Part shown: positions 15,801 through 42,458 of the stretch, one piece after another
Position numbering within the stretch: the first letter of the stretch is position 1
How the letters are laid out: each line of letters starts with the position of its first letter
Assembly (NCBI GenBank): GCA_016181175.1
Contig: JACOZV010000001.1
Location: forward strand, 75,778 to 139,777
DNA from: Candidatus Yanofskybacteria bacterium
GTDB taxonomy: Bacteria > Patescibacteriota > Minisyncoccia > 2-02-FULL-40-12 > IGHO2-01-FULL-4-A
Length of the DNA stretch: 64,000 nt
Direction of reading: 5' to 3'
Position numbers and translations under genes: made by a program
The notes under the pieces: model-generated
What the model saw: only the letters and a program-made list of their open reading frames with translations
Told to the model about the DNA's origin: nothing
Databases searched by the model: none

Positions 15801-16276
15801 CGAGAAATATTAAAAGATTTACAATGTGGCCTGAATTTGCCGGAGCAGTAATGACTGGCAATACGACAAATAGTGTTGGAACTATGACTTCTGATAATGA
15901 GTCTTCGTCTTCATTCAGGAGTTATTACCAATGGACTGCGACATCAGCTACAACACAGGAATACAAAATATTTGTGAAGGTTCCAGTACCCAACGATTTC
16001 AGTGCATTTAATACTGGAGTAAAGGTCGGTGCCTATAAGAGTAATGCTAATGAGAGGATTTTGTTTAGCATAAGGGATACGGCTAACGCCATTTCTAATA
16101 TTGCCAGTGTTAGCGTGGCGACCTCGGCTGAAAACTGGACACTAACCACATCTTCAACACCAACAGGTACTTATGCTTCGGGCAGCGATATGATTTTCAT
16201 ATTTGAAATGCTTTCTAGCTCTAGCCAGAGGGTACGGCTAGGTTCAATAAGTTTTGATTATTACAGTAAGTTTTAA
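12824..16276 (+). CDS. Giant membrane-anchored surface protein 1 (1150 aa): cytoplasmic N-terminal domain, one TM helix, Gly/Ser/Thr-rich extracellular region
   Basis: TM segment AAVTAMFATAAFIFLLIFGMTVL near residue 185; poly-G runs; Thr/Ser/Asn/Gly-rich beta-rich C-terminal two-thirds; GTG start. Confidence 0.7.
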   Translation: MSFITLFETQEQLEKSLESIDYSSVNFFVKDGKRFIEASFLAKEFGYEPGHVARLARQNKIDSFYDQPSRRWYVTKESLAKYQEQAHLNKKLAGLKSANLVKPIIQQTTIAPQEKAISVETDLEAGQLRLAETGRTVLSEESADISIDNDAVSSPVLSESVLSNFHTHSQYSASSRLKAAVTAMFATAAFIFLLIFGMTVLPKDLSLVKDLTSKLSAVPTFFLENHGTVSRPAFLPVKPTGQYLNLAVVFYQDFIEEPIEKFFDFYENGPVLSPLVAPKDFYLTVVPQPKPKINFSFLYNFKNLFFAPVEKLADSSVGFTEQILIIWGKMSQIEILPAETKSVPLFSQVKITSPNFASIADSIADQSFIKNFKQVLNNEKLALPSLNLISTQGLAGGLNKGFADLSQAADTFSFLPKLPDRVTGFFSDLKEIILSPLKDIANYGDNLTEQSPTFPDQISQPESSPAGVKPPTTFSPAKSSGPVYVATPIDQSFIKKLVKQFFDEEKSALTPLNLISVQGSVDDLNQKLADLVSRVNQIPPPLQYIGGGGGGSTTTVGGGDAQVAGSKLTVGVTVVNSGSIGTTSGNFSIDSGGGTTTISDNLTVTGLLSASTASSHSFIGDLSISDDIELTGDASASAFFGAGLNAMTGTTGCSGASADKLLYNATTGKFSCGSDQNSGGGGGAPLGIEIVNSGAAFGTHYGSISFDASHFTVSLADLSASSSYVRLDWGAGGPASLSQDETVAGKWLFNSASTQFNNLLELNGTASVSVANTNFNINLNGTGDFVIQDAGSTVFTVTDTDTITLNNGSADLVSITGNASISSNLELTGTGFASASYFYAQPGTAALPAFAFGNDTDTGIFRSAANQLGLATNGVERLTIDPSGYVGIGTTSPTTKFEVQGTASASNFLTVGAIQVAGGVSKTFSRFGLDDTGHNLIAASDLLVSGMLEINSNTFFDASASVAVNFDVGSGANVIKIRPNAGNNSGFRLEGNARNIKRFTMWPEFAGAVMTGNTTNSVGTMTSDNESSSSFRSYYQWTATSATTQEYKIFVKVPVPNDFSAFNTGVKVGAYKSNANERILFSIRDTANAISNIASVSVATSAENWTLTTSSTPTGTYASGSDMIFIFEMLSSSSQRVRLGSISFDYYSKF

Positions 16277-19200: not shown

Positions 19201-22200
19201 GAAGTCTACAATAACACACTCTACGATTGCGGTTCCTATAACCCAACTTCAGGCGACAGCGGGGCGATCAATAAGTCTGGTCAAAATGAGAATATTATAA
19301 TAAACCTCCGCAACAATATTATTTTGCAAAATTCAGGAGAGGTTTATATTAAGTCTTCTGGTAACAACAATATCAACGCCCAAGTTACGGGTAGTAAAAA
19401 CCTATTTGCTATGGTTTCTGGTTCGGCTCAAGATTTATCGGGATTTACTGGTCTAACCCCCTACCTCACCCTCGACCCCCTCTTCATCAGCACAACTACC
19501 CCGGATTTCCACCTCCAATCCACCTCTCCCGCCAAAGATGCCGGTGTATTCACCACCGCCCTCTTTGACATTGATGGTATCTCTCGTCCACAAGGAGCAT
19601 CTTTTGATATTGGCGCCTATGAGTATCCATCAGGCGCAGTAGCAGACACAACCTCTCCCACAGTTTCAATAACTTCTCCAACCGACGGCTCAACCCTTTC
19701 CGGCGCTGCCAATACAATAACTGCCAATGCCTCAGATAATATCGGGGTAGTCGGCGTCCAATTCAAAATAGACGGAATCAATCTAGGTTCCGAAGATACA
19801 TCATCCCCATACTCTATTAACTGGGACACCACCACATATACCAACGGCTCTCATACCATAACCGCCGTAGCCAGAGATCCATCCAGCAATACAACAACTT
19901 CTTCAGGAGTCAGCGTAAACGTAAATAATGAAGTGGCTCCAACTCCTCCGGTCATATCTAATGTAACTGCCTCATCTATCACTACTACCGGCGCTACCAT
20001 CACCTGGACTACTGATAAATCATCAGATTCACAGGTGGAATACGGCTTAACCACCAGCTACGGTTCATCTACAACTCTTGATTCAACATTGGTTACCAAC
20101 CACTCAGTTCTATTATCAGGCCTAACATCACAAACAACCTATCATTACAGGGTTAAATCACAGGATACCCCGGGCAACCTAGCCACCTCAGGAGATTTTA
20201 CCTTTACCACCGCCACACCCCCTCCGGTAATCTCAAACGTCCAAGCTACCAATATCACCGCTACCTCTGTAACTATTACCTGGGCTACTGATCGAGCCAC
20301 GACCAGCAAGGTTAACTATGGTTTGACTTCCAGCTATACCAATTCCACGGTTAAAGACACGACTCTGGTAACCAGCCACTCCGTATCCATAGGCGGCCTG
20401 TCTGCTTCTACTCTCTACCACTACCAGGTTGAATCATCGGATTCAGGCAATTTAACTTCCGTTTCTTCCGATGCCACCTTTACCACGGCCGCCTCGGCTT
20501 TACCCGTCATCTCCAATATCCAAGCCACCAACATTACTACAAGCGGAGTCACCATAACCTGGACGACTGACATATCCTCTGATTCGCAGGTAGAATATGG
20601 TACCACCACGGCTTATGGCTCATCCACAACTCTTGACTCCACTCTTGTTACCAGTCACAGCGTTGCCCTAACCGGCCTTTCCGCCGGCACTATATATAAT
20701 TACCGGGTCAAATCCAGCGGAGCGGTTTCAACCAACAAAACCTTTTCAACAACATCGGCTTCCGATACCACCGCCCCCGCCGCGGTTACCAATCTGGCCA
20801 GCACCGGCACAACCAGAACATCCGTTGACTTATCCTGGACTGCTCCAGGCGATGACGGTAATACCGGCACCGCTACTTCCTATGATATGCGCTGGCTGAC
20901 CGTCCCTATAACTGACTCCAACTGGAGTTCCGCCAATATTCTTACCGGTTTGCCTGCGCCAAAAACGGCCGGCACAACCCAGACATATACGGCCATTGGC
21001 TTAACGGCTAACATCACTTACTACTTTGCTTTAAAAACAAAAGATGAAAGCAATAATGTTTCAGCGTTATCAAATGTGATAAGCGCTAAGACCAAAACCG
21101 ATACCGCCACTGGCGGCGGAGGCGGCGGAGCTTCTTCTTTTGACGCCTCGCCCGGGCCGGTTAAGATTTCCAGAATTGGCGAAGCCGACAGTCAGATTCT
21201 GTTAGAATGGCGTAATCCAACCGATGAGGACTTTGTCCGCGTACAAATTGTTGTTAACGAAAACCGCCAACCGTTAAATCAGGATGACGGCAGGATAATA
21301 CTGGAAGAAAACACTACCAAATTCCTCCATGTCAATCTGCGAAACGGCAAAACCTACTATTTTAATATCTACGCCTTGGACTTGGCCAAAAACTTTTCCG
21401 AACCGGTTAAGCTCAAAGCTGTCCCCCAAGAAGGAGTATTATCTTTCGCCGAAAACATAGAGCCGCTTGATGTCGCCCAAACAACCCAATACATTGCCCC
21501 GAAGATAATAACCGAAGAAGACTTCTCCGTTTTCAGGCCAAGGATATTCCCCAAAGCTGTTTTAATCAGATACGCCTTTGATAAGAACGTCTATTACATA
21601 GAAAACGGCAAGAGAAGACTGGTACCCAATTATGCCACCCTCCTTAAACTGACCAATAACAATCCAAACAAGGTTTTAACGGTATTGGATAAAGAACTGA
21701 TAGACGGTTATTCATCTGCCGCTCCTCTTGAAGAAAAAGACATCACCTCTTTATCAAAAGAAATTACCGCCCAATCAGCTTTGGTTAAAACCAAAGACAA
21801 ACCGACTGTCTACCTGGTAAATACAATAGACAAGACCAAACAAACCATTCCCACGCTTGCGGTATTCTATTCCTACGGCTTTTCATTCAAAAACGTATCT
21901 GAAACCAAACAGGAAGACGTGGATGCCCTAACTGAAGCAGGAGAATTAACTCTTAAAACATTTCCAAATGGTTTTCTCATGAAATCTCCCGACAGTTACA
22001 AGGTTTACATAATCCAAGATGGCCAAAAGAGATGGATCAAAACCCTCAAGCTCTTCCTGGGCTTCAAATACATTGATAAAGACGTAACTACCCTGCCTAA
22101 AGAATTAATAGAAGCCTACCCAACAGGATCAGATATTGAAAAGCAGGATGAAACATTACCCAGCAAATTACAAATCAAAGTTCCGGCTACCATCCATGCT

Positions 22201-22437
22201 GACGGCACCCTGGTTAAATTAAAAGATAACTACAAGGTTTACCTTGTAGACAAAACCCAGCTTAAATGGATTGAAACCCAGGAAGAGTTTAAGACCAAGA
22301 AATATAAATTAAAAGACGTGATTGCTATTACCAAGGACGAGTTTGAGTTGTATGGGATGGGGGAGGAAGAACCCATCGAAGAGATAACCACGGGGATAGA
22401 GATGGGAATAATCCCCTCGTCAAGTGAGGGGCAGTAA
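16294..22437 (+). CDS. Giant secreted multidomain surface protein 2 (2047 aa): Ig-like domains, (PT)n linker, parallel beta-helix region, 3x FN3-like domains, 4x C-terminal repeats of about 55 aa
   Basis: Signal peptide MSKHLKIIIFSLFLVAGFTMKSDFASAAS; Ig-like GVSGVQFKLDGVNLG…; PTPTPTPTPTPTPTPTP; three VISN…ITWTTD…YHYRVKS FN3 repeats; C-terminal YKVY…GYxxxxVxx…EL repeats. Confidence 0.75.
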   Translation: MSKHLKIIIFSLFLVAGFTMKSDFASAASRYWVGGGSSTNWNATGPTNWSATSGGTNNDTVPNSTDDVFFNSSSGTGNSVISASITINSFDATGYTGTLTHNASVTLTISGSGVVFKLASGMTYTKGGNTSSALSFTGTSGTTMITTAGKTIGKITFNGVGGSWQLQDALNAAGTASQIILTSGNFDSNNFNVTMGSFVSSNSNTRTLTMGSSTWKLQDGGTIVWNLATVTGLSLNAGTSTIVISSTNGSGKTFAGGGQTYYNVVFSGDNINISDSNTFNNFAINNAGLTNGLALGVGKTQTIMGSFTTNGSAGSLAILKTTTSGSTATLSKASGTVCVDYMSIKDSTVSGGASWYAGANSTNVSGNTGWTFSACPGGDTTPPTVSISSPTAGLTVSGNTTVSATASDNVGVSGVQFKLDGVNLGVEDIDSPYSITWDTTATTDGSHDLTATARDASGNQTTSSAVTVTVSNPTPTPTPTPTPTPTPTPTPLPATGIPVIFFTDLESGPNTGGENNNGAFVTIYGKNLSGSTVTVGGGSAIIKLTSTPYLWYEKMAIQLGASTNSGNIIVTNAYGSSNNLPFTVRAGNVYCVSMTGADSNNGKFTTETPPSAGVQGCWLNVYKAKNTIAAGDIAYILDGANQTTPEPGTGVALQISNGGNLGNPKALIVYPGGTSVLGAIGSGDWVGSVGGIKVLGSASNADYITIAGFTFKTFSSALSISGNTYPSAQHWRFIGNYLTCPGGDGQSACASPGSMEYLEFLGNEITDAGCKEGGTQNCKLISPANTITTVGTTLTLSGFTSGVNLGARICVTTCASGQVRHIVAAGPNNLNWILDSAFTSDVTDSTFQFRYGLTSKQYHSVYVDNSDHIEIGWSYIHNNNSCRGILTNSTGTTGGHQQHDLSYHDNIIHHQTCAGIDLNTVDPNTGPVEVYNNLIYHVGTGPTPHDGIGNLACIYSGDNNRSSPGAGTIEVYNNTLYDCGSYNPTSGDSGAINKSGQNENIIINLRNNIILQNSGEVYIKSSGNNNINAQVTGSKNLFAMVSGSAQDLSGFTGLTPYLTLDPLFISTTTPDFHLQSTSPAKDAGVFTTALFDIDGISRPQGASFDIGAYEYPSGAVADTTSPTVSITSPTDGSTLSGAANTITANASDNIGVVGVQFKIDGINLGSEDTSSPYSINWDTTTYTNGSHTITAVARDPSSNTTTSSGVSVNVNNEVAPTPPVISNVTASSITTTGATITWTTDKSSDSQVEYGLTTSYGSSTTLDSTLVTNHSVLLSGLTSQTTYHYRVKSQDTPGNLATSGDFTFTTATPPPVISNVQATNITATSVTITWATDRATTSKVNYGLTSSYTNSTVKDTTLVTSHSVSIGGLSASTLYHYQVESSDSGNLTSVSSDATFTTAASALPVISNIQATNITTSGVTITWTTDISSDSQVEYGTTTAYGSSTTLDSTLVTSHSVALTGLSAGTIYNYRVKSSGAVSTNKTFSTTSASDTTAPAAVTNLASTGTTRTSVDLSWTAPGDDGNTGTATSYDMRWLTVPITDSNWSSANILTGLPAPKTAGTTQTYTAIGLTANITYYFALKTKDESNNVSALSNVISAKTKTDTATGGGGGGASSFDASPGPVKISRIGEADSQILLEWRNPTDEDFVRVQIVVNENRQPLNQDDGRIILEENTTKFLHVNLRNGKTYYFNIYALDLAKNFSEPVKLKAVPQEGVLSFAENIEPLDVAQTTQYIAPKIITEEDFSVFRPRIFPKAVLIRYAFDKNVYYIENGKRRLVPNYATLLKLTNNNPNKVLTVLDKELIDGYSSAAPLEEKDITSLSKEITAQSALVKTKDKPTVYLVNTIDKTKQTIPTLAVFYSYGFSFKNVSETKQEDVDALTEAGELTLKTFPNGFLMKSPDSYKVYIIQDGQKRWIKTLKLFLGFKYIDKDVTTLPKELIEAYPTGSDIEKQDETLPSKLQIKVPATIHADGTLVKLKDNYKVYLVDKTQLKWIETQEEFKTKKYKLKDVIAITKDEFELYGMGEEEPIEEITTGIEMGIIPSSSEGQ

Positions 22438-22445
22438 GATGACAA

Positions 22446-25400
22446 ATGTTAAATCTAATTTTCCAAAAACTGCTCAAAAAGAAAACGATTGACCGCTTGA
22501 TTCTAGCGGTCAAAAAGTTTATAGCCGGCACGACGATTTTAATGTCGGTGTTTTACGGCACTCTTTATTATGCCCTAGTCACATTAGCTAGCGAAAACGA
22601 ACAAGTTCCCAAACCACTTGTCAGTCAGACAGGAGATCCGACCAGTAATCCCGGCAGATATTATTTAGAGTCTCTTAAAAACAGAGCTGATGAAATTGTC
22701 GGTCTTACCTTTACAAGCCACGATAATTACCAAGAATTTGTTTTCGCTGGCAATAAAATTATTGAGCCAGCATCAATTACTATAAACGACAAACCATACG
22801 TGCCATTCAGATTGCTTTTGTCTTCAAGCAGTAAGGACTACGAAGTTGAACTCAAATCCAAGAAAGGGACGCAAATAATTTCTTTAGCCGGAGATCGTTT
22901 CGAGTATTCTATTTTTGAAAAACAACAAAAAGGTTTTTTGAAATTGGCTTCCGTTAATCCGAAATTTCAAATAAAAAATTGGGGGACCGTGGAAGAACCT
23001 CAGTCAACACCCAGCTGGCAAGATATTATTTTTACAAATCCAGTATCAACCAGTTGGTCAGTATATGACAATTACATAGAAATCAAACAAAATAGCAATT
23101 TTATTACAGGAGAAAAAAATTACAACGCTTGGTTAAAGGTAAAACTTGGTTTTGATAGTTCAGATTATATTAACTCCTGGAATTTCGGCGTATCAGGCCA
23201 GGAAAATATTACACCCGCAGATGAATTTAGAATTAGACTGCAGACTGTGCTTGCGGGTAAAATCAAACATCAGACAAATGATAGCGGTAACTTGGAAGTT
23301 GGTATAGAGAATCCAAAAAGTAATACAGCTGAGGATGTCATAGATTTGGACAATTTATTTCTAAATCCAACGGCTTCGGTATCTCAAACGCCGAGTATAT
23401 TACCAGAAGCTACGGTCGGTTCGATACCAGTGGAACCAGAAGTAACTCAATTACCAAGCGCCACCACAGAACCTTCGCTGATTTCGACACCCGAGCCGTC
23501 TCTTACTCCGGCTGCATCTGTGTCAGAATCGGGCAATGAAGCAAGCCCTTTGTCTGAAGAACAAGAGACGATCCCGACTCCGCATTTTGAGATTACTTCA
23601 ACCCCATCCAGCGAGAGTCCAGCCCTAGAATCAATACCGGAGCAGACGCCGGAGCCGATTACTACGTCCCTGCCGGAAACTACTGGCAATCAAGACGAAA
23701 CCACGCCTGAACCAAGCCCCACCTCGCTATTAAATAAATTCTTTGGAATCAATATTGTAAATGCAGAAGAAGTGACAGAGCAACCAGTAGAAGCAAGCAT
23801 AGACCCGGTCATTATACCAGAAAATACAACTAATCCAGTCTCCGAAATACAAGAGCCTACTTTGTCGGAAACTGATACCGATGAAACTGCGAATTCTATT
23901 ATAGCGGAACCGATACTCCAACCACTGATTGAGGGTGCTTCAAGTATTATTAATCAAGTTACCGATAGTTTAACTAATTTTGCAGAAAGTCCGAGTATAT
24001 CATTGCCGACTTTGGAACCGGAGACAGTTTCTAACAGCGAGCCGGTAACTATTTTTGAAGAACCTATTGTTGCAAGCTCAGATCTTTCGGAGCCCCCCCA
24101 AAAGCCGCAATCAATTCCAGCCCAAATTGCAAACGTATTAAATAGTTTGAATCTTTTTTCTGTTACTCAAACCACCATTTCTGAATTAAATTTTGGTTTA
24201 GGAGACGAGGGTGGGAGCAATCTCCAGATAGATGAGAATAATAACATCCTAACAACAGAGGTAAGTTTGAATTCCAGCAACAACGGGGTTTCAGTTATAC
24301 TTTCAGATATCGGTGTGGCCGTTTATAACACCGGTATCTGGATAGCTTCGGGCGATGGCAGTAAATCAACAGATTTCAAACTTCACTTCAATTCCAGCTA
24401 CGGCGGCGCGATTGATGAGTTGTATCTTGGCACCGACTTTCATACCAACAAAGTGGCGACTCCGCAGGCAGGATCGGGGGGGCTGACATTGATTGAGCAG
24501 GATCATTTTTCCCAAGCGGAAACCAGAAGTTCAACCCTGGAAGTGATTGAGCAATCCAAGGTCAGGATAGTCATAGACAACACCTTTAGACTTGGCCCGG
24601 AGGCTGGCATAGCCGAAAAGTGGTCAATTTATGCCACCGGCCGGATAATAAAACAAACGATTTTTGATAAATATAAAACTGGCGAGGAAAGGTGGTATCT
24701 CAATGCTGCCAAAACCGGTTTTGATTTATCAGCGGGTTATAACTACAATCAGCTGATTTTAAACACCAAACTGGAACCCAATTCCAAAGACCTGATGTTG
24801 GTTTGGCAAAATCCAAGTTTGTTGACCTCTTCTTCTTTTGAGGCAGGCGAAACGGATAGTTCATATACAACCGTTGCGAAATTAAACCGTCAGCCGTGGA
24901 CCTATACTGAATACCAAATGATTGATTTGATGCAAGAGGATTTGAGCATGATTGATAAAACCTCAATAGATGAAAGAGCGAATGATTATCGCAATCCCGA
25001 CAATCCAGAATTCACGGTCGGCAGTTTCAGAAAGGTCAATCAGCAATATTTTTCTTATGAAATGGATTCGGCCGGCAGTAAAAATCATGTAGTATTCAAA
25101 ATGGACGGTTCACAAATCGCAAGATTCCATCCGGTATTTGAAATTCACGAATGGAACAACCCAGACCTTAGCGCAATCAGATCATACATGAACCAGAAAA
25201 ATATGGTTGAGAATCGTGACTATATTGTTGATTTCAGGAATAGTGATCCCGGCACTGGTATTTTGATATTCCACTTTCTTGGCACAGTACGCACCAATTC
25301 AGAATTAAGCGCTGACGGGTTTGTAACTTTTGATATTGATCCGGAGGTTACTCCGGGTTCGGGGATACTGGCTTATGGAGGAGGGAATATGCAGACAAGT

Positions 25401-27908
25401 TTTGTGACTACCGATGCTACAGGAAATAACTTGGGAGCTTTTGCCAGCGTTTCAGCGAGCACATTTAATCCGTTTTGGGTGGTTAATCGTGCCAGTCCGG
25501 TTGGCGGTAGTCAGGCCTCCGGTTCGGACAATGAACACTTGGTAGGCGACCTTAACGGCACTGGCAATCTTGAGATGCTGCGCTGGAACGGTACCGCTTG
25601 GGCGTTGGATTGGACGGAAAACAATGTTGGTTCACAATCGCTTGATGTAAGAGCGTATGATATTGCTTATGAAAATAGCGGTGAAGCGGTGGCGGCTTGG
25701 TCCCAAACTAACGATACAACTGGTCTTATTGAATACAGAGTTTGGAATGGGATTAGTTGGGGAGCGTCAACAAGCTTCACCGTGCCGACCACAAACAAGA
25801 TTGCTTGGATTGAAATGGCATCACACCCAGCCAGCGGTTCAAATCAAAATGATATTGGACTCTGCTATGTTACCGGCGGATTGAACGAAACCGGTTGTGC
25901 AGTCTGGAATGGGACTACAAATACCTGGGGCAATGCGGTGCTTAGAGAAAGCGATTCATTAAATAATAGAAAATCCGTTTCAGTATTTTACGAGCAAAGC
26001 TCTGGAGATCTTATAGAAATTTCGGGTATAGAACATACCACAAATGGTGGTGGTGTGGTTTTGACCTATTCAAGTTGGGATGGCTCAAGTTGGACGGCAA
26101 CATCCTCTTTCAGTAGCGGCAGCGGAACGGGGGATAGTGCCAATGATCTTAGTTGCGCTCCAGCTCCTTTTTCGCTCAACGGCACGACTACGAAGAATAA
26201 GGCGGTATGCCTTGCTTATGATGGTTTTGCAGATGACGTGTGGTCGTTTATATGGGACGGTTCGGCGCCTAACAACGAGAATTCAAATACTACAACAAGT
26301 ACTGTTGCCGCCGGTTTACTTATTTCTGGCGGAGTCAATTGGATTATTGATACGAGAGCTATGGGGCTAATTATTATCAATGTTAGTGCGGGCAGCAACC
26401 AAGTTGATTATGAGTACTGGGATGATACTGCTGGCGCTTGGACGCTAAATCAGACATTTACGCATACCACTGGTACTAAAAGAAGTTTTCAGGTTGAACC
26501 AAATCCAAACCAGAAAAACACGGCAACAGTTCTTATAAGTGACAATAATACCAATCTCTTTGCTTATGAAGCCAGTGTCAGCGAAACCACAGTTACTTTT
26601 AATAACTTGAATAATGGTAATGCAATAACTCAAGATTTAACGAATGTTGGCAAAAACCAAGCATTTATGATGGCCTACGACCTATTCCCCAACCCTACCC
26701 AGACGCATTTCCAATGGTTGAATGACGATGCGGGGTTGAACTCTGGGACTGCGGCTGCCGCCCAGGATGCGACATTAACGGGATTAACAAACGGTTCAGT
26801 TAAGAGATTGAGGGTTGAGATTTCAAACGAAGGCGCAGGGAGCAAAAGCAGTAATTTCCAGCTGGAGTTTGCCAAAAAAGGTTCTGGTTGCACTCAAGCT
26901 ACGCTTTCCGCCGGTTGGAATTACAGGGAGATACATACTGATTCGGTAACTGCTTCAGACGCTTTTGATATACAAGATTCAACCAACTTCAGCAATGGGG
27001 CGGCGACAACAGCATCATTGAGTGCCAGCGACCCTACCTTTGTAGCGGGTCAAGGCATAGATTCCGCATCATCCACCAGCGCCATTGCTTTGAATGGCAA
27101 TAACTATACCGAGATTGAATATGCTTTGCAGGCGAATACCAACGCCCAGTCCACGACTACCTATTGTTTCCGCTTGACTGATGGCGGGGCGAGTACTTCG
27201 TTCACTTATCAGAGATATGCGGAGGTTCAGACGGGGACGATTGGAGTTTCCGTTCCAACCTATACCGAAGATTTCTTCAGGTTCTATATAAATGTTGACA
27301 ATATTTCTCCAACCGATCCTTGGCCAACTAGCTCTAATGATTTAGCCGAAAACGCCACAATGTCAGCGCATTTTGCAAGCATTGCCAGCGGCAGTATTAT
27401 GCGTTTGCGAACCAACATGTTAGTGGGAACGGCTACTCTAAATGCCGCCTCGCAAACATTCCAACTGCAATATGCGGAAGGATTCAACTGCGGAGCATTA
27501 TCCGGTGGCAGTTGGGCTTCAGTAGGGGCGTCTACAAGTAATACAATCTGGCGATTTGGATCTAATGGAAGCGTAACTGACGGCACGGCCCTATCAAGCG
27601 GCGGCACCCTTTTATCCAATTCTGATAATGGCGCGCGAGCTACCTACGAAGAGGGCAATCCATCAGCAGTCAATCCCAATGCCGTAACCAGCGGCCAGCG
27701 CATGGAACACGACTGGTCTGTTCAAAATAATGGTGCCGTATCCGGCGCGGCATATTGTTTTCGTATTATCCGTAATTCCGGTACAACCCTCGAAACCTAT
27801 AACAGGTATCCTCAAGTAATACTAGGCCCGTCAACCGACCAGATTTTACGCCACGGTGCTTTCTTCAGCGAAGGAGTTGAGCAAGGGTATTACTGGTCAG
27901 GAATTTAG
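22446..27908 (+). CDS. Giant membrane-anchored surface protein 3 (1820 aa): mucin-like S/T/P/E-rich stalk and C-terminal repeated jelly-roll-like modules
   Basis: N-terminal TM helix FIAGTTILMSVFYGTLYYALVTL; about 150-aa low-complexity TEPS region; repeated C-terminal modules ending …YCFRL…YQRY / …YCFRII…YNRY. Confidence 0.7.
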   Translation: MLNLIFQKLLKKKTIDRLILAVKKFIAGTTILMSVFYGTLYYALVTLASENEQVPKPLVSQTGDPTSNPGRYYLESLKNRADEIVGLTFTSHDNYQEFVFAGNKIIEPASITINDKPYVPFRLLLSSSSKDYEVELKSKKGTQIISLAGDRFEYSIFEKQQKGFLKLASVNPKFQIKNWGTVEEPQSTPSWQDIIFTNPVSTSWSVYDNYIEIKQNSNFITGEKNYNAWLKVKLGFDSSDYINSWNFGVSGQENITPADEFRIRLQTVLAGKIKHQTNDSGNLEVGIENPKSNTAEDVIDLDNLFLNPTASVSQTPSILPEATVGSIPVEPEVTQLPSATTEPSLISTPEPSLTPAASVSESGNEASPLSEEQETIPTPHFEITSTPSSESPALESIPEQTPEPITTSLPETTGNQDETTPEPSPTSLLNKFFGINIVNAEEVTEQPVEASIDPVIIPENTTNPVSEIQEPTLSETDTDETANSIIAEPILQPLIEGASSIINQVTDSLTNFAESPSISLPTLEPETVSNSEPVTIFEEPIVASSDLSEPPQKPQSIPAQIANVLNSLNLFSVTQTTISELNFGLGDEGGSNLQIDENNNILTTEVSLNSSNNGVSVILSDIGVAVYNTGIWIASGDGSKSTDFKLHFNSSYGGAIDELYLGTDFHTNKVATPQAGSGGLTLIEQDHFSQAETRSSTLEVIEQSKVRIVIDNTFRLGPEAGIAEKWSIYATGRIIKQTIFDKYKTGEERWYLNAAKTGFDLSAGYNYNQLILNTKLEPNSKDLMLVWQNPSLLTSSSFEAGETDSSYTTVAKLNRQPWTYTEYQMIDLMQEDLSMIDKTSIDERANDYRNPDNPEFTVGSFRKVNQQYFSYEMDSAGSKNHVVFKMDGSQIARFHPVFEIHEWNNPDLSAIRSYMNQKNMVENRDYIVDFRNSDPGTGILIFHFLGTVRTNSELSADGFVTFDIDPEVTPGSGILAYGGGNMQTSFVTTDATGNNLGAFASVSASTFNPFWVVNRASPVGGSQASGSDNEHLVGDLNGTGNLEMLRWNGTAWALDWTENNVGSQSLDVRAYDIAYENSGEAVAAWSQTNDTTGLIEYRVWNGISWGASTSFTVPTTNKIAWIEMASHPASGSNQNDIGLCYVTGGLNETGCAVWNGTTNTWGNAVLRESDSLNNRKSVSVFYEQSSGDLIEISGIEHTTNGGGVVLTYSSWDGSSWTATSSFSSGSGTGDSANDLSCAPAPFSLNGTTTKNKAVCLAYDGFADDVWSFIWDGSAPNNENSNTTTSTVAAGLLISGGVNWIIDTRAMGLIIINVSAGSNQVDYEYWDDTAGAWTLNQTFTHTTGTKRSFQVEPNPNQKNTATVLISDNNTNLFAYEASVSETTVTFNNLNNGNAITQDLTNVGKNQAFMMAYDLFPNPTQTHFQWLNDDAGLNSGTAAAAQDATLTGLTNGSVKRLRVEISNEGAGSKSSNFQLEFAKKGSGCTQATLSAGWNYREIHTDSVTASDAFDIQDSTNFSNGAATTASLSASDPTFVAGQGIDSASSTSAIALNGNNYTEIEYALQANTNAQSTTTYCFRLTDGGASTSFTYQRYAEVQTGTIGVSVPTYTEDFFRFYINVDNISPTDPWPTSSNDLAENATMSAHFASIASGSIMRLRTNMLVGTATLNAASQTFQLQYAEGFNCGALSGGSWASVGASTSNTIWRFGSNGSVTDGTALSSGGTLLSNSDNGARATYEEGNPSAVNPNAVTSGQRMEHDWSVQNNGAVSGAAYCFRIIRNSGTTLETYNRYPQVILGPSTDQILRHGAFFSEGVEQGYYWSGI

Positions 27909-35273: not shown

Positions 35274-35652
35274 AACATTTCCTAAGTAGCGGCGAGCGAA
35301 AGGGAAACAGTCTAAACTCTTGTTTATTAAGTTTACTTAGTGAGTGGGAGTGTTGTAGGAAGGATTTTTTTCTAAACACTGGACATCTGCATATACTCTT
35401 GTGCGGATATCCAGGAAATTAGGATTGAGTTACAAAGTTAGATGTTAGCTGAACGGTCCTGGAAAGGCCGACCAAAGAGGGTGATAGTCCCGTAAACCAA
35501 AACCTCTAATCTCAATCAACCGAGCACATAACTTTTAGGAGTTATGAGCTCGGTTGGAAAATCCTCTCCTGAGTACCCATGGAGCAGACTATCCGTGGCG
35601 AAGCCGGGCCTACTACGGTCCAAGACTAAATACTTTTGGTGATCGATAGTGA

Positions 35653-35686
<34 letters not shown>

Positions 35687-35799
35687 GGTTAGGGGAGTGA
35701 AATAGAACTGAAACCATATGCCTACAAAGAGCCGAAGCCCTTCCCGTCGCAAGACGGTCAGGGTGACGGTGTGCCTATTGAAGAATGATCCAACGAGTT

Positions 35800-36128
35800 T
35801 TTACAAGTGGTTTATCCAGCTTCACTTTTGGTTTATGATGACTTTATGTGGATAGTTTATATTATTCAGAACAATCTAACTGAAAAAATATATATTGGCT
35901 GTACAAATGATCTCAAGAAACGAGTCGAAAAGCATAACAGCCAAACAAATAAAGGTTATACAAGACGACTTATCGGTCAATGGATTTTGATATACGCGGA
36001 AGCTTATAGAAGCAAAGAAGATGCTTTTCGACGGGAGTCAAAACTCAAAGACCACGGTAGTTCTAAACATGAATTGAAGAAGAGAATCAGCAATTCATTG
36101 TTAAAACCAAAAGTGAGGCTGGATTAAG
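35800..36128 (+). mobile_element. Stem-bounded intervening sequence in the 23S helix-25 region carrying a GIY-YIG ORF
   Basis: 19-bp stem CCAGCTTCACTTTTGGTTT (35816-35834) / AAACCAAAAGTGAGGCTGG (36104-36122) enclosing the ORF; inserted between …GAATGATCCAACGAG and GGATAAGCCCGTATAGGG…GGAAACCGAGTG. Confidence 0.65.
35846..36127 (+). CDS. GIY-YIG nuclease-family protein (YhbQ/UPF0213-like) encoded inside the 23S IVS
   Basis: WIVYIIQNNLTEKIYIGCTNDLKKRVEKHN…YTRR…WILIYAEAYRSKEDAFRRESKLK is a GIY-YIG motif set; an alternative GTG start lies at 35807. Confidence 0.7.
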   Translation: MWIVYIIQNNLTEKIYIGCTNDLKKRVEKHNSQTNKGYTRRLIGQWILIYAEAYRSKEDAFRRESKLKDHGSSKHELKKRISNSLLKPKVRLD

Positions 36129-36582
36129 GATAAGCCCGTATAGGGTGCATCCGTAGGGAAACCGAGTGTTAAAAGCGCGACTTAATCGCTTGTAAAAGAC
36201 CCGAAGCCAGGTGAGCTACCCATGGCCAGGATGAAGTTTGTCGAAAGACAAATGGAGGTCCGAACTAGTTGATAGCGCAATATCATTGGATGAGCTGTGG
36301 GTCGGAGTGAAAAGCTTATCGAACCTGGTAATAGCTGGTTCTCCCCGAAATGCCTTTAGGGGCAGCGCCGGTGAGTAGTCGCGGGGGTAGAGCTCTGAAT
36401 GGTTTGCCGTGCCAGCAATGGTAGGCTTACCAAACAAACTACGAATACCGCGGTGTAATCGCCGGTAGTGAGACTGTGAGGGCAAAGCTTCATAGTCGCG
36501 ACGGGATTAGCCGTTTGACCACCGCTTAAGGTCCCTAAATCTATGCTAAGTGTTAAAGGAAGTCATTTTCCTTAGACAGGTA

Positions 36583-36624
<42 letters not shown>

Positions 36625-37305
36625 CAGCTTACTGCTCGAATTCTAATTTCGGTTAGACGAGGAAAGTGGCGCCGAAGATTCAACGGGGCTAAGCATAGTA
36701 CCGAATGCGTGGACCGTCCCGATTTATCGGGATGAGTGGTAGGGGAGCACTTCAAGCCGCTGCGAAGGTGTGTCGTGAGGCATGCTGGAGCGCTTGGAGG
36801 AGAGAATGTTGGAATGAGTAACCACAAGCGAGGTGAGAACCCTCGCCGCCGTAAGCCTAAGGTTTCCTCCGCAATGTCAATCACCGGAGGGTTAGGCGAC
36901 GCTAAGGATAACCGTGCCTACGGGCATGGGAAGCCGATGCTAAGCCGGTTAATATTCCGGCCCTTCCATATGTATTGATGGAGCGACGGAGGATATAAGC
37001 TGGAGCAGATTATTGGATTTCTGTTTTTGGATTCCAGGATTGTCGTTTGGAAAATCCGGCGACTGACTTTAATGTCAAAATACGAATTTGAAGAAATCAC
37101 GGGTAACCGTGGGATTCCAGTGAAGAGCCTTCCAAGAAAAACTTCTAAAATTATGCATATGGGAAACGTACTTAAAACCGACACAGGTGGGCTAGTGTAA
37201 GTGCACTAAGGCGAACGGGTGATTATTGGCTAAGGAACTCGGCAAAAAAGTGGCCGTACCTTCGGTATAAGGCCTACCTGACCGTGCCTCACTGCGTTCG
37301 GCACG

Positions 37306-37410
37306 AATTTTTAAATTTTTAATTTTATAATTTTAATAAATAATTTCTAATGTTTAAAAATTAAAAACATTAAGATTTATTTAAAAATTAAAAATTGGAA
37401 ATTAAAAATT
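37306..37410. repeat. AT-rich palindromic hairpin repeat (family A), full ORF-less copy inserted in a variable 23S helix near the helix-63 region
   Basis: AATTTTTAAATTTTTAATTTTATAATTTTAATAAATAATTTCTAATGTTTAAAAATTAAAAACATTAAGATTTATTTAAAAATTAAAAATTGGAAATTAAAAATT; arms are mutual reverse complements; central mini-hairpin TAATGTTT/AAACATTA; flanked by 23S exon sequence. Confidence 0.75.
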
Positions 37411-37632
37411 CTAACAAGCCGAGCATAGCGAGGCGCGGTTGGGTCGCAGCTAACGAACCCCTGGCGACTGTTTATCTAAAACACAACTCTGTGCTAAGCC
37501 GAAAGGCGCTGTATACAGGGTGACGCTTGTCCAGTGCTGGAACGTTAACGGTGGAGGTGGTATGCAGCAATGTGTATTGCCAACGCCCGAAGCGCCAGTG
37601 AACGACGGCGATAACTATAATCGTCCAAAGGT

Positions 37633-38949
37633 TTTGAGAATTTGTCAGATGGCAAGTTCTCAAAAGGACTTGGCCGATTGTAGTGAATTTATATTGATAA
37701 ACAAAAGTAGCTGCCTATCGCGTGACGAAAGTTTTACGCGATGTCTTAAAATATATTCGATCATATGCTGGAAAGTCTGAGTATCCACAACTACTATGGT
37801 ATGATGTTACCTTTGGTGATAAAATATATCTATGCCAAGTAAAAATGTTAGTGGTGCAGACGATCAGCAGGAAAGTCTGAAAATGATGGGTTGGATAACA
37901 GGTTTTGTTGATGGGGAAGGATGTTTTACTGTCAGTATATTCAAGAATTACAAAGCTCAACGCAAGCTCGGATGGCAAGTATTCCCTGAGTTTGTAGTTT
38001 CCCAAGGAGAGAAGAGCTTGAGCGTTCTCGAACTGATCAAGAACTACTTCAACTGTGGTTATATAATAAAAAATAAAAGGAACGATAACCACCACGAAGA
38101 TATGTTCAAATACTGTGTGAGATCTTTGTCGGATCTAGAAACCAAAATTGTGCCATTCTTTACCCAAAACAAACTCCTAACCGCAAAGCGAAGAGATTTT
38201 ATAATCTTTAAGGAAATCCTAAAAATGATGGGTCGCAAGGACCACCTTAACCTTAAAGGACTTAGAAAAATTGCCTCTCTAGCTTTGCAGATGAATCGTA
38301 AAAAAAGACCCAAGTTTTCAGAAATCCTCAGAGACTAAACGTCGAACCCGCTCAAATTTTTGGACTTAAATAAAAAAAACCTCAACTGAGGTTTCGATGA
38401 ATTTGCTATTAATAATCAATTATAGGAGCTTGTTCGTGCCGCTTATCTATACCTTTAAATCTACTGTCGGTACGGATTTTCCTAATGGTATTTCGTGGTA
38501 ATTCACATTGAATCAGCATAATATCATTGTTTCTGAGTTTAACATTAAATTCTACTATGCCATATTCTATAAAATATATAATAAGAGATGCTACCCAGCG
38601 TACATGAACACGAAGAGTTAATTTTTCCATGAATTTTCCACCTTTCTTTTGTGATTTAAAATGAACTTTGAAATGCAACACCAATAAACTAAATGTTTAC
38701 TGGTTTGCCCTACTCGCCCTGATTTGTAAAAGGATGAGGAAAATAAGGATAACCCTTTACTTTACTCGTCTTTTAGCTGATTTTTATTGTAAAATAAGGA
38801 CAAATCAGATGTTGCACTTCGGGGGTAAATGCGAGCGAAGAAACCCAGTGGTAAGTATAAATCAATTAAAATTTAGTGTCAATAGTCCAAAAATTTGAGC
38901 GGGAAGATATAGTCCGAACTGCATGGCGACATGCAGAGTAACATACTTA
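37633..38949 (+). mobile_element. Intron in 23S at the E. coli ~1917 site (CCAAAGGT | AGCGAAATTCC) carrying a LAGLIDADG homing-endonuclease gene
   Basis: Exon junction reconstitutes AAGGTAGCGAAATTCC; 1317-nt insert; internal 19-bp long-range pairing CCCGCTCAAATTTTTGGAC / GTCCAAAAATTTGAGCGGG; 3' motif GAACTGCATGGCGACATGCAGAG shared with the insert at 39499. Confidence 0.7.
37832..38338 (+). CDS. LAGLIDADG homing endonuclease (single-motif, I-CreI-like), intron-encoded
   Basis: 168 aa; MMGWITGFVDGEGCF LAGLIDADG motif. Confidence 0.8.
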   Translation: MPSKNVSGADDQQESLKMMGWITGFVDGEGCFTVSIFKNYKAQRKLGWQVFPEFVVSQGEKSLSVLELIKNYFNCGYIIKNKRNDNHHEDMFKYCVRSLSDLETKIVPFFTQNKLLTAKRRDFIIFKEILKMMGRKDHLNLKGLRKIASLALQMNRKKRPKFSEILRD

Positions 38950-39169
38950 AGCGAAATTCCTTGTGGGGTAAGTTCCCACGCGCATGAATAGCGGAACGAC
39001 TGGGGGACTGTCTCAGCCAATAGCCCGGTGAAAATGCAATGTCAGTAAACGAGTTTTTATGCGTAGTGTAGTGGCGAGCCTTTGAAGTCATGTTCTTGGA
39101 TGTGATGGAGGCGACAATGAAACAGCCATCTTAAAGACTTGTAATTCTAACTGGTGTAACCCTAGGAGG

Positions 39170-39441
39170 TAAAATATGTTTTCTGATAAAAAACCAATAG
39201 AATATTGGATGCAAGAACTAATGAATCTAAAACATGAATGTGATCTGATGACAGAAAGGATAAGGAGTACCAGAGCGAACATTGAATATCTAATAGATTC
39301 AATCAAAGACAGAAGTCCAAAAGGAGTTGACCCAGAAAAATGGAAAAAGTTTTTAGCAGAATGGAATTCGTTTCAAATTGAATATAGTAACTTCCAATTT
39401 TAGTTTAAGTCGCCCTATTTTTAGGCAAGTTTTATTTGCCT
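39170..39441 (+). mobile_element. Stem-bounded IVS in the 23S domain V (helix-79-equivalent) region with a 75-aa ORF preceded by a perfect SD
   Basis: 14-bp stem GTAACCCTAGGAGG / CTTCCTAGGGTTAC encloses the insert; AGGAGGTAAAATATG gives SD spacing of 6 nt. Confidence 0.6.
39176..39403 (+). CDS. Small helical hypothetical protein encoded in the 23S IVS
   Basis: 75 aa (MFSDKKPIEYWMQELMNLKHECDLMTERIRS…); strong SD; no recognised family. Confidence 0.45.
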   Translation: MFSDKKPIEYWMQELMNLKHECDLMTERIRSTRANIEYLIDSIKDRSPKGVDPEKWKKFLAEWNSFQIEYSNFQF

Positions 39442-39498
39442 CTTCCTAGGGTTACATCAAGACAGTGCCTGGTGGGTAGTTTAACTGGGGCTGTTGCC

Positions 39499-39995
39499 TT
39501 AACGCGGTATTCGTTACACCGCATGGGGCCTACTGAAAGTAATTTCAGTATGCAAATTCGACTATATGCTGGAACCCCCGCGCATATCTGAATACTCTAC
39601 TTAGTAGCTGAGCTACTAAGTAAGTGAAAATTTTGGATCGATGCGGACAATCAGCAGGGAAGTTCTTCAATTAAATTCAGGACCCCTCAACGACTGTACG
39701 TCGAGTGCCGCGAAGCGGCAATGATACAGTCTGAACTGCATGGCGACATGCAGAGCTGGGCAGAAATGACCCGGCCGCCTATAAAATTTGGTTTTTTAAG
39801 GCCATGTTTTATGGGAAGGGTTTAGCGAATAATGCCTTATAGCACCGTTGAAGCTGTGCGATTGCACGGTTTGCGAGCAGTATAATTTTTCACTGCGAGT
39901 AAAATCCACAGATTCAACGGAGCGTAGCAACCTCGCTGGGGTTGCAAGCGGTGATAGAAGGTATTATTCGCTAAACCTGCAAAGTAACACAATTG
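39499..39995 (+). other. ORF-less structured insertion (intron or IVS) in 23S between GGGGCTGTTGCC and CCTAAAGAGTAACGGAGG
   Basis: About 497 nt with no ORF of 60 aa or more; contains GTCTGAACTGCATGGCGACATGCAGAG, near-identical to the 3' motif of the 37633..38949 intron, and a 20-bp internal stem GGTTTAGCGAATAATGCCTT / AAGGTATTATTCGCTAAACC. Confidence 0.5.
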
Positions 39996-40250
39996 CCTAA
40001 AGAGTAACGGAGGCGTTCATTAAGGTCGGCTAGCTGCGGATGGAAATCGCAGCGATAGTGTAAAGGCAAAAGCCGGCTTAACTGCGAGACGGATGTGTCG
40101 AGCAGGTGCGAAAGCAGGACTTAGTGAACCGACCGTTGGTCGTAGGACCGCGGAAGATCATCAGACAAAAGCTACTCCGGGGATAACAGGCTGGTACTGC
40201 CCGAGCGTCCCTAGCGACGGCAGTGTTCGGCACCTCGATGTCGGCTCGGC

Positions 40251-40769
40251 TTTTAATCGACTTTTTAACTGTTTGAGCCCGAGGAAAAGACATCAAAATA
40301 TAAATCACGGCGCAATAATATAGGAATATATTATTGACTGCTAACTTATATCGGTAAAACCCATTCGGTAAACTCGGGGTAATACCGAGAGAAGTTATTT
40401 GTTCAAATTTTTGGAAAAATAAAAAAGACCCTATTGGGTCATGTAAAATATGGCAAATGGTAAGGTAATGGCTAAAACAAATTGAAAGCGACAGAGACCA
40501 TCAGTATAGATTTTTTTGAAAGATCCAAGGGCTATAAGAGAGTTAAAAATCCAGAAAATAAGCATTAAAACCAGAGATATTAGCAGTTGTTGGGAGTTCA
40601 TTATTGCCTCCTAAATTAAATATAATTGATTATTAAATTATTGTCAATACCCAATTAATTTGACTCCAAAAATTTGAACAAATAACACTCGTAGAGACTA
40701 AATGTTAGCCATCCAATCTGCCAATCAGTGGAGGATGAAGTTATGGTCCAATGCACATAGTAATATGTG
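40251..40769 (+). other. ORF-less insertion in 23S after CACCTCGATGTCGGCTCGGC (E. coli ~2510 region); boundaries unresolved
   Basis: About 500 nt without an ORF; internal long-range pairing TTGTTCAAATTTTTGGAAAAAT / GACTCCAAAAATTTGAACAA resembles the module in the 37633..38949 intron; exon resumes near GAAACATGCGTGAGACAGGTTGGTCC. Confidence 0.4.
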
Positions 40770-40840
40770 GAAACATGCGTGAGACAGGTTGGTCCTTATC
40801 TGGTGCGGGCGTTGAAGTTTGAGGGGGGTTGTCCCTAGTA

Positions 40841-41614
40841 AGAAATTGCTACTTCACGCAGTAATGCGTGATGACAACTCGGCTAATAACGGTGAAATCT
40901 TATTATTTTTGTGTTCGTTGATAACTACAATTGTCGCGGTCCGACAATTATAGTACAATTTACTTGAGGACCAGAAATAATTAAGACGATACCGTGGGAA
41001 GTCAATCTAAAATTGATTTAGCATATATTGCAGGTTTTCTTGATGGTGACGGAAGCTTGATGTTACAAATCAAGAGACGCAAAGATGGAACCAAAAAGTT
41101 TCGCTTTATGTCTACAATTTGTTTTTATCAGGATAGTAACCACGAAGAATTTCTGCATTGGATAAAAAATATTCTTGGAATTGGTTATTTGACTCAAAGA
41201 GATGATGGCATGAGTGAACTAAGAATTAATGGATTTAAACAAGTTAAAGATATAATAAAAAACTTATTGCCATTTATTAAATTCAAGAAAAATCAAGCCA
41301 ATGCTATTTATGAAGCAACTAGCATGATGAGCAGTAAGATTCTAAGCCGTTTAACCAAGCAGGAATTGTTAAAAATCGTAGATTTAATGCTTATAATTCA
41401 AAAGCATAATTATAAATCTAGAAGCAAGAAAACCAAAAAAGAACTCATTCAATTATTAGATTTGACCCCGTAACGACTTGTCGAGTTTAGCTCGACGGAT
41501 GATTAGCGATGAGATTGCATCAATGGTTAATCATAACATGCCGATTCCCTGAATCCGCTTTTTGCGGGAGGGAAAAGATATAGTCTACACTTATAGTGAT
41601 ATAAGATTTTGTGA
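40841..41614 (+). mobile_element. Intron in the 23S sarcin-ricin loop (CCCTAGTA | CGAGAGGACCGG) carrying a LAGLIDADG homing-endonuclease gene
   Basis: Flanking exons reconstitute CCTAGTACGAGAGGACCGG exactly; 774-nt insert. Confidence 0.7.
40994..41473 (+). CDS. LAGLIDADG homing endonuclease, intron-encoded
   Basis: 159 aa; LAYIAGFLDGDGSL LAGLIDADG motif. Confidence 0.8.
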   Translation: MGSQSKIDLAYIAGFLDGDGSLMLQIKRRKDGTKKFRFMSTICFYQDSNHEEFLHWIKNILGIGYLTQRDDGMSELRINGFKQVKDIIKNLLPFIKFKKNQANAIYEATSMMSSKILSRLTKQELLKIVDLMLIIQKHNYKSRSKKTKKELIQLLDLTP

Positions 41615-42282: not shown

Positions 42283-42458
42283 CCCCGCACCAAAATTAAA
42301 AATTAAAGCCAGCAAGTTGGTGACTATACTGTGAGTGCTCCACCTGTTCCCATTCCGAACACAGAAGTGAAATCTCGCAAGGCCCATGATAGTACAGTGC
42401 TTAGCATTGTGCGAAAGTAGGTAGTCGCCAGCTTGCTGGTTTTAATTTTGGTGCGGGG
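42283..42458. repeat. Family-B inverted repeat (CCCCGCACCAAAATTAAAA … TTTTAATTTTGGTGCGGGG) enclosing the 5S gene as an extended processing-stem/hairpin
   Basis: Left arm 42283-42307, right arm 42440-42458, 19 bp perfectly complementary. Confidence 0.6.
42308..42439 (+). rRNA. rrf: 5S rRNA with a 16-bp extended terminal helix
   Basis: GGTGACTATACTGTGAGTGCTCCACCTGTTCCCATTCCGAACACAGAAGTGAAATCTCGCAAGGCCCATGATAGTACAGTGCTTAGCATTGTGCGAAAGTAGGTAGTCGCCAGC; ends GCCAGCAAGTTGG / CCAGCTTGCTGG pair. Confidence 0.8.

Follow-up and report, generated by a model that had tools for sequence, protein, structure and literature searches.

Intervening sequences (IVSs) of the classical kind, found in the 23S ribosomal RNA (rRNA) genes of Salmonella and other Enterobacteriaceae, are inserts of about 90-150 nucleotides (nt) that lack an open reading frame (ORF), occupy the tips of helix 25 (H25) or helix 45 (H45), and are excised by RNase III without religation of the rRNA. 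The insert that is the theme of this work lies in the 23S rRNA gene of a Candidatus Yanofskybacteria bacterium, within a stretch of 64,000 nt (assembly GCA_016181175.1, contig JACOZV010000001.1, positions 75,778 to 139,777 of the forward strand), hereafter the window, in whose numbering positions are given below unless a locus handle precedes them. Like the classical IVSs, it is a non-intron insert with paired ends and sporadic presence or absence among relatives; unlike them, it is 315 nt long (35812-36126, + strand), encodes a predicted nuclease of the GIY-YIG family and sits at a helix junction (604/605 in Escherichia coli numbering), its excision here being presumed. We consider it fairly probable that this insert is a self-contained, hairpin-bounded GIY-YIG cassette, that is, a mobile element of the IVS type and not an intron, lodged at the junction of helices 27 and 28 (H27/H28) of 23S rRNA.

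Other described systems share some of its features and differ in others. The 23S IVSs of Leptospira and Coxiella burnetii are, like the window cassette, bounded by inverted repeats and carry a small ORF in the loop, but that ORF encodes the S23p/23S_rRNA_IVP four-helix bundle (PF05635), also found free-standing elsewhere, whereas the cargo in the window is a GIY-YIG protein and not PF05635, its termini are conserved across many sites, and ORF-less derivatives of it exist. With endonucleases of the I-TevI type (TIGR01453) the window protein has in common the GIY-YIG fold, the motif residues, and a gene located in an insert that is (in the window, presumably) removed at the RNA level, yet it has neither a linker nor a DNA-binding domain, falls below the TIGR01453 cutoff and is not surrounded by a ribozyme. 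Its closest relatives in sequence and predicted structure are Slx1 and the UPF0213 proteins (YhbQ, BH0048, EF2693), the latter about 95-107 amino acids (aa) long; these are ordinary chromosomal genes, not known with bracketing inverted repeats or inside RNA genes, and Slx1, unlike the window protein, contains a RING/PHD domain in addition and works with a partner, Slx4. In repetitive extragenic palindromes and their associated transposases (REP/RAYT), and in miniature inverted-repeat transposable elements (MITEs) and their parents, a nuclease gene is flanked by hairpin inverted repeats and ORF-less copies carry the same termini, as in the cassette family, but there the nuclease is of the Y1/HUH or DDE type and not GIY-YIG; the cassettes also lack target-site duplications and occupy structured-RNA genes, and their mobility is presumed.

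The same phenomenon as that in the window has, however, been catalogued in bacteria of the candidate phyla radiation (CPR), to which the host of the window belongs and whose rRNA genes are known to be heavily interrupted: insertions occur in about 82% of CPR 23S genes and in roughly half the cases correspond to no intron (Tsurumaki, 2024, J Bacteriol, PMC11270868). That survey counted 30 GIY-YIG ORFs in CPR rRNA insertions, 15 in 16S and 15 in 23S genes, all of them in insertions that match neither intron class; these are scattered over several sites and were judged unlikely to spread by homing, and the first description of GIY-YIG ORFs in non-intron CPR rRNA insertions is there attributed to Brown (2015) (PMC11270868). 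An earlier note on this DNA, made from the sequence alone, had described a GIY-YIG gene in an rRNA IVS as an arrangement not commonly reported, which these counts contradict. The survey does not describe the terminal repeat, an internal -10 box, ORF-less copies, copies in RNase P RNA or outside the CPR, or the site at E. coli 604/605, and a literature search found no description of conserved termini, a positioned -10 box, RNase P RNA copies or ORF-less derivatives. The window instance is thus one more member of a catalogued class, while the family-level picture set out below is plausibly that of a new variant of IVS-type mobile element.

The exact limits of the insert are given by an empty allele, L090 (handles of this form denote the loci compared here), which was found in a metagenome by a pattern search for the joined flanks. 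It reads ...ACAAGTGGT/AGGATAAGCCC... across the junction (marked by the slash), with ...AAGTGGT on the left side, and its flanks are 87-98% identical to those of the window; an empty site GGT/AGG therefore corresponds to a filled site GGT/TTAT...ATTA/AGG, and the insert comprises 35812-36126, its ends coincide with those of the inverted repeat, and it takes the place of a 23S junction of only 1-2 nt. More distant empty relatives (L010, L008, L019) have a 2-nt junction at the same 23S position, where cassettes are present in L003, L082 (88% protein identity) and L083 (72%), and the filled L083 and empty L090 have flanks 92-98% identical. The presence/absence comparison of large-subunit (LSU) rRNA genes that the earlier note had proposed thus bears out a discrete insertion that is delimited precisely by a terminal inverted repeat of 21-23 base pairs (bp). 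No target-site duplication was found at the window site by comparison with L090, nor at the other cassette sites compared.

The two arms of this repeat, CCAGCTTCACTTTTGGTTT (35816-35834, + strand) and AAACCAAAAGTGAGGCTGG (36104-36122, + strand), pair at all 19 positions, through 18 Watson-Crick pairs and one U.G (T35821 with G36117), so the perfect 19-bp stem proposed earlier is complete as RNA pairing although it is not a perfect inverted repeat at the DNA level. Outward, A35814-T36124 and T35815-A36123 extend the stem to 21 bp and, past a single T.T mismatch, T35812-A36126 brings it to 23 bp with one mismatch, pairing thereby reaching both ends of the insert. Exact copies of the 15-mer CCAGCNNCANTTTTG occur in the 64-kb window only in the two arms, and folding of the 361-nt insert region (z=-5.3 versus shuffles) supports the stem. 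Inside it, a -10-like hexamer, TATGAT (35834-35839, + strand; putative promoter), is followed by a 6-nt spacer (35840-35845) and the GIY-YIG gene (35846-36127, + strand; 93 aa, ATG at 35846, TAA at 36125-36127). Between the 5' arm and the ATG there are just 11 nt, and at the other end the final codons and the stop overlap the 3' arm region, the 3' arm doubling as code for the last residues, KPKVRL; the remark in the earlier note that there is almost no non-coding sequence holds good.

To place the insert in the rRNA, the window 23S gene was aligned to and numbered on the E. coli rrn operon, with reference to the E. coli fold and the Rfam LSU alignment. Rfam puts the start of the bacterial 23S gene at 35000 and the 5S gene at 42316-42433, and by blastn against E. 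coli 23S rRNA the gene extends to about 41925, broken by several large inserts. The cassette is located at the H27/H28 junction, between A604 and A605, and an independent blastn aligned window position 36126 with E. coli nt 604. Directly upstream is the 5' strand of H27 (35798-35811, + strand; E. coli 590-603), assigned from the Rfam LSU alignment and the E. coli alignment and fold, and directly downstream is H28 (36128-36152, + strand; E. coli 606-626; GGAU AA GCCC GUAUA GGGU GC AUCC), 23S sequence picking up at once on either side in both the Rfam alignment and blastn. The location in H25, the classic IVS site, that had been assigned previously is accordingly off by about 50-70 nt and two helices: H25 is a short, intact hairpin without insert (35737-35764, + strand; E. 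coli 533-560), about 50 nt upstream of the cassette. Group I and group II intron models of Rfam have no match at E<=0.01 within 35700-36300, which encompasses the whole insert, against three group I matches elsewhere in the same gene, one at 39472-39753 (67.6 bits) and weaker ones at 40589-40770 and 38760-38936; the gene also holds two LAGLIDADG ORFs (37832-38338, 40994-41473). The contention that the insert is neither a group I nor a group II intron stands.

The product of the loop ORF is 100% identical to an NCBI entry named 'GIY-YIG nuclease family protein [Candidatus Yanofskybacteria bacterium]' and, as had been predicted, matches the GIY-YIG profile PF01541 over residues 1-73 (65 bits against a cutoff of 22.6; E=8e-18); a Pfam scan returned GIY-YIG, T5orf172 and MUG113 only, and no PF05635. 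Residues Y16, G18, R26, H30 and E64 are invariant among 40 homologs, Y5 is kept in at least 90% of them, and dN/dS is 0.11 relative to the 88%-identical ortholog in L082. The likeness to YhbQ/UPF0213 noted earlier was confirmed by phmmer searches against proteins of known structure, which retrieved the UPF0213 proteins BH0048 (1zg2, E=7.4e-5) and EF2693 (1ywl, E=4.9e-3). In an AlphaFold2 (AF2) model of the 93-aa protein (pLDDT 83; E2-9, E15-20, H23-31, E46-54, H57-69, H71-80) the GIY-YIG alpha/beta fold is seen as a three-stranded sheet with flanking helices, for which the best Foldseek matches are 1zg2 and Slx1 nuclease domains (probability 1.0, TMq up to 0.67), while the I-TevI catalytic domain has a probability of only 0.3. 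Likewise, the model for group I intron endonucleases, TIGR01453, gives 28 bits against a cutoff of 56.05, over residues 4-45 only. The protein ends about 20 residues past the catalytic core, without a linker or DNA-binding domain, and its last 4 residues, encoded by the stem, are disordered in the model. By sequence and model, then, it is an intact, bare catalytic domain of the Slx1/UPF0213 type, on the structure-specific branch of the family, under purifying selection and with predicted nuclease activity.

Relatives of this cassette are widespread and were examined as a family set made up of the best 80 of 182 confirmed relatives from a scan of one genome per species. Thirty-four of the 80 loci lie inside a 23S gene and three in a 23S leader, 11 inside a 16S gene and one upstream of 16S, three inside RNase P RNA (L005, E=2.7e-25; L066; L034) and three next to a tRNA gene, the other 25 having no recognised RNA gene nearby. 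All 55 RNA-associated ORFs run in the same direction as the RNA gene. About 17 sites can be told apart by their flanks, about ten in 23S, five in 16S and two in rnpB, in addition to intergenic copies. Those in 23S include H63 (the commonest; E. coli about 1707-1751), H25 (L041, L052, L067, L078), the H27/H28 junction, three sites in domain I and four others. Proteins that are 55-65% identical occupy these unrelated sites, RNase P RNA and intergenic DNA included, and the closest species-representative relatives of the window protein itself are found at H63 (L002, 65%) and in rnpB (L005, 64%). A few copies occur outside the CPR, in Tindallia, a Bacillota metagenome-assembled genome (MAG), Dehalococcoidia, Omnitrophica and WOR-3. 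An origin from phages was considered and rejected, relatives in IMG/VR being distant (<=33% identity).

The RNase P RNA cassettes (L005 2477-2779; L066; L034 2471-2777) share flanks of the form ...AAUCG/AGGAAAGUCCGG at two of the three loci, and those two copies replace what we take to be helix P3. Because of the inserts, all three rnpB genes score below the Rfam gathering threshold and were found in E-value mode. A search for transfer-messenger RNA (tmRNA) or tRNA hosts of the free copies, with ARAGORN on sequences from which the cassette had been deleted in silico, added none, and Rfam in E-value mode gave only the three RNase P RNAs. The tRNA-adjoining copies (L055 2501-2758, L064 2501-2755, L076 2501-2755) are more distant homologs without a convincing inverted repeat, which end 0-15 nt from, or overlap, a co-oriented gene for tRNA-Ile or tRNA-Cys; they may in this way, too, be transcribed and processed together with a stable RNA. 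As a separate observation, six of the H63 copies (L002, L004, L007, L008, L020, L044) have no stop codon before or within the 3' arm, and their ORFs continue into 23S, where conserved tails such as ...GRSESIPGDCLxKTQLPANS are translated rRNA.

The stem travels with the gene. Nearly every copy, free-standing ones too, is bracketed by an inverted repeat of 18-30 bp (median 21 bp; 67 distinct stems among the 80 loci), the outer part of which is conserved as 5'-(Y)CCCAGC NN CA N TTTTG... / ...CAAAA N TG NN GCTGGG(R)-3', with the terminal variants CCCTCCCC, CCCCGCCC and CCGAGCAC; the outer CCAGC in the 5' arm of the window belongs to this family-wide signature. An alignment of 31 stems, anchored at CCAGC, has 97% of its positions paired and two-sided changes in 12 of 18 pairs, with a covariation score of 0.616 versus 0.161 after shuffling and at most 0.094 with slid pairing. 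On the sense strand of the 67 stems, scored with an equal penalty for all non-Watson-Crick pairs, G.U outnumbers A.C by 46:13 (p=2e-5), and this excess together with the covariation is consistent with selection acting on base pairing within the sense transcript. The pair just inside CCCAGC/GCTGGG is often non-Watson-Crick, with the pyrimidine always in the 5' arm: U.G in the window, L011, L015, L016, L023 and L029, and C.A in L005, L012, L022 and L037. A derivation of the stem from a host helix is ruled out by identical termini at unrelated sites and by the intergenic copies; the domain I variant CCGAGC does resemble a host GAGCUCG motif, yet it also bounds an ORF-less copy at H25 in L024. Stem and gene are a single conserved unit. 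The earlier suggestion that IVSs serve as vehicles for nuclease genes survives insofar as hairpin inserts carry such genes across the 80 loci, but not in the sense of a host IVS that acquired a gene.

In relatives, rRNA and RNase P RNA genes also harbour ORF-less hairpins of 74-129 nt with the termini of the cassette. There are three in L002, two of them 95% identical at different 23S sites, three in L009, with one pair 94% identical and again at different 23S sites, three in L033 and two in L024, and rnpB copies are found in L034 (2030-2155 and 2174-2300) and L005 (3191-3287). Rare terminal variants are common to the cassette and the ORF-less copies of one genome, CCAGCCGTA in L033 and CCGAGCACCAC in L024, and in L005 the same C.A mismatch recurs in the cassette and its ORF-less copy. 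The short copy in L046 joins 33 nt from the start of the resident cassette to about 50 nt from its end, and is thus an internal-deletion derivative. Taken together, cassettes and ORF-less hairpins look like autonomous mobile elements and their non-autonomous derivatives.

Signals for expression are likewise positioned in a characteristic manner. Of 81 copies, 33 have a TANNNT hexamer separated from the ATG by 6 nt and 11 have one separated by 7 nt, as against no more than 9 at any other offset from 0 to 24, and the pattern occurs in 8 of 35 other ORFs of the window (Fisher p=0.002 versus the family). Shine-Dalgarno-like motifs are rare both in the family copies and in other window ORFs, two Firmicute copies having AGGAGG or GAGG instead. 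A hexamer exactly 6 nt before the ATG suggests a leaderless mRNA. Among 68 copies, 52 have their stop codon within the 3' arm and 10 have it farther downstream, so an RNA cut at the stem would usually be a non-stop message.

These features can be joined in the following scheme. In the pre-rRNA the two arms would pair, extruding the insert as a long double-stranded stem, and a host double-strand-specific RNase, most likely RNase III, would remove it without religation; the insert, once excised, would therefore be harmless to the ribosome. Stems of about 18-30 bp have roughly the length that a double-strand-specific RNase needs. A separate mRNA, leaderless and initiated at the ATG under control of the -10 box of the cassette, would serve for translation of the nuclease; lacking the 5' arm, this transcript would form no stem and so retain the stop codon. 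The protein may act on DNA, probably recognising structure or the cassette termini and not one particular rRNA target, and would thereby help the cassette and its ORF-less derivatives to spread. Removal of rRNA insertions from transcripts has been reported for CPR bacteria (Brown, 2015, as summarised in PMC11270868). Beyond the reading of the insert given at the outset, we propose more tentatively, as a possibility that falls somewhat short of probable, that the cassette is the autonomous form of an unrecognised class of mobile elements, which would combine an Slx1/UPF0213-type nuclease, permissive sites in structured RNAs, processing by a host RNase in place of self-splicing, a leaderless transcript that escapes this processing, and MITE-like derivatives to which some of the numerous short, unexplained insertions of CPR rRNAs would be due.

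Several points weigh against this scheme or parts of it. Part of the covariation is due to ascertainment, because the stems were found by an inverted-repeat search, and a constraint on the terminal repeats at the DNA level would give covariation too; the excess of G.U, for its part, could stem partly from a C-to-T bias that accompanies transcription and affects the non-template strand of strongly transcribed genes. The hexamer pattern occurs in 23% of the other ORFs of this AT-rich genome, and a two-hexamer promoter scan did not call the TATGAT site, so that we infer the internal promoter from its spacing across the family. The window, all 64 kb of which was searched, holds a single cassette and no ORF-less copy with its termini, and the case for mobilisation in trans therefore draws on other genomes alone. 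A bare catalytic domain may, by analogy with Slx1 and its need for Slx4, require a partner, and the closest ortholog, at the same site in L082 (16-297), has His in place of the first motif Tyr (MWKVHVIQ versus MWIVYIIQ) despite purifying selection over the gene as a whole. Lastly, nearest-neighbour proteins are found at the same site in 26 of 51 cases, versus 6.7 expected, and inheritance at one site, or homing, must therefore be important as well, alongside the switching of sites.

That last figure also speaks for an alternative in which the protein is a site-specific homing endonuclease that makes use of an RNase III-excised IVS, cutting uninterrupted H27/H28 rDNA so that the cassette is copied in by recombinational repair. 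The site is filled in L003, L082 and L083 and empty in L090 with nearly identical flanks, the absence of a target duplication is to be expected of repair-mediated homing, and homing elements are typically found in rRNA genes, as the two LAGLIDADG ORFs in this very gene illustrate. A protein of this kind would, nevertheless, have to find its target with a catalytic domain of only about 90 aa and no DNA-binding domain, its score against TIGR01453 is half the cutoff and its fold is nearer to Slx1/UPF0213 than to I-TevI, and homing to one sequence is difficult to reconcile with proteins of 55-65% identity at about 17 unrelated sites, with the closest relatives of the window protein at H63 and in rnpB, or with ORF-less copies 94-95% identical at different sites of one gene; we regard it as unlikely. 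The strong purifying selection would be compatible with a host function, and the cassette could be imagined as no more than a passenger, a UPF0213-type nuclease useful to the host and lodged in hairpin inserts, maybe for co-expression with stable RNAs, which has no role in spread while host processes move the hairpins. UPF0213/YhbQ genes are indeed ordinary chromosomal genes in many bacteria, 25 of the 80 homologs have no recognised RNA gene nearby, and those in L055, L064 and L076 adjoin tRNA genes without a convincing inverted repeat. A mere passenger would, however, have no need of the terminal repeat with conserved ends that nearly all copies keep. Also against it are the variant termini common to cassette and ORF-less copies in L033, L024 and L005, the presence/absence polymorphism among close relatives, and the position of 55 of 80 copies in or adjoining genes for stable RNAs, a class that accounts for well under 1% of genomes of this kind, and we see little likelihood in this explanation.

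Two further possibilities concern the fate of the insert in RNA. It might be retained in mature 23S rRNA as a lineage-specific expansion helix at H27/H28, with the ORF expressed independently: a peripheral junction of several helices could tolerate an extra one, and the putative internal promoter would uncouple expression from processing. Set against this are the reported removal of CPR rRNA insertions from transcripts (Brown, 2015, via PMC11270868), the retention of stems at about 18-30 bp (median 21), the improbability of a 280-nt AU-rich coding loop as a stable component of the ribosome, and the replacement of P3 of RNase P RNA and of helices of 16S by the same cassette, all of which leave retention quite improbable. 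That the segment belongs instead to a more extensive group I or group II intron reaching beyond the stem, a prospect raised in the earlier note and lent some colour by the group I introns and LAGLIDADG ORFs of the same 23S gene, is hardly credible given the lack of intron-model matches within and around it (35700-36300, E<=0.01) and empty alleles in which the insert ends exactly at the stem, with 23S resuming at once on both sides. The reading we favour thus remains the hairpin-bounded, IVS-type cassette.

The rRNA gene that hosts it merits description in its own right. Stretched to about 6.9 kb, it carries large inserts spanning 37633-41613: one after E. coli ~1932 (37633-38949), containing the LAGLIDADG ORF at 37832-38338; one after ~2258 (39495-39995), containing the 67.6-bit group I intron; one after ~2513-2595 (40248-40777), with a weak group I match; and one after ~2661 (40844-41613), containing the LAGLIDADG ORF at 40994-41473. 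Further extra sequence is present between E. coli 1982 and 2225. At H63, the commonest cassette site in relatives, the window has a very AT-rich, near-palindromic, ORF-less insert of ~160 nt (37279-37441), which lacks CCCAGC/GCTGGG termini and attracts spurious 'MIR7533' matches on both strands. In domain I, a short hairpin, CCGAGCACATA...TATGAGCTCGG (35520-35553), occupies the site of the cassettes with CCGAGCAC termini in L024, L027 and L029, and could be either a cassette relic or a native helix, E. coli having GAGCUCG there. Among relatives, H25 of L083 (~175-330) holds an AT-rich insert of ~180 nt with CGAATA-type repeats that is absent from the window and L090, and an extra insert downstream of helix 31 (H31) is common to L083 and L090 but absent from the window and L082. 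No 16S rRNA gene was found within the 35 kb upstream of the 23S-5S pair (1-35000), and the rRNA genes therefore appear to be unlinked. That upstream region includes three adjacent, very large ORFs at 12824-16276, 16294-22437 and 22446-27908 (1150, 2047 and 1820 aa).

If a large share of the non-intron insertions in CPR 23S genes are copies or relics of one hairpin-bounded nuclease cassette, what has long been a descriptive oddity would gain a mechanism. The CCCAGC.../...GCTGGG termini offer a simple search key for annotating inserts in the rRNA and RNase P RNA genes of MAGs, where such inserts currently break the callers for rRNA and non-coding RNA, as at all three insert-bearing RNase P RNA loci. 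Were the scheme proposed here to prove true, selfish nuclease genes would have, in addition to self-splicing, a second means of persisting within essential RNA genes, and the widespread, as yet uncharacterised GIY-YIG proteins of the UPF0213/YhbQ type would be placed in a biological context for the first time.

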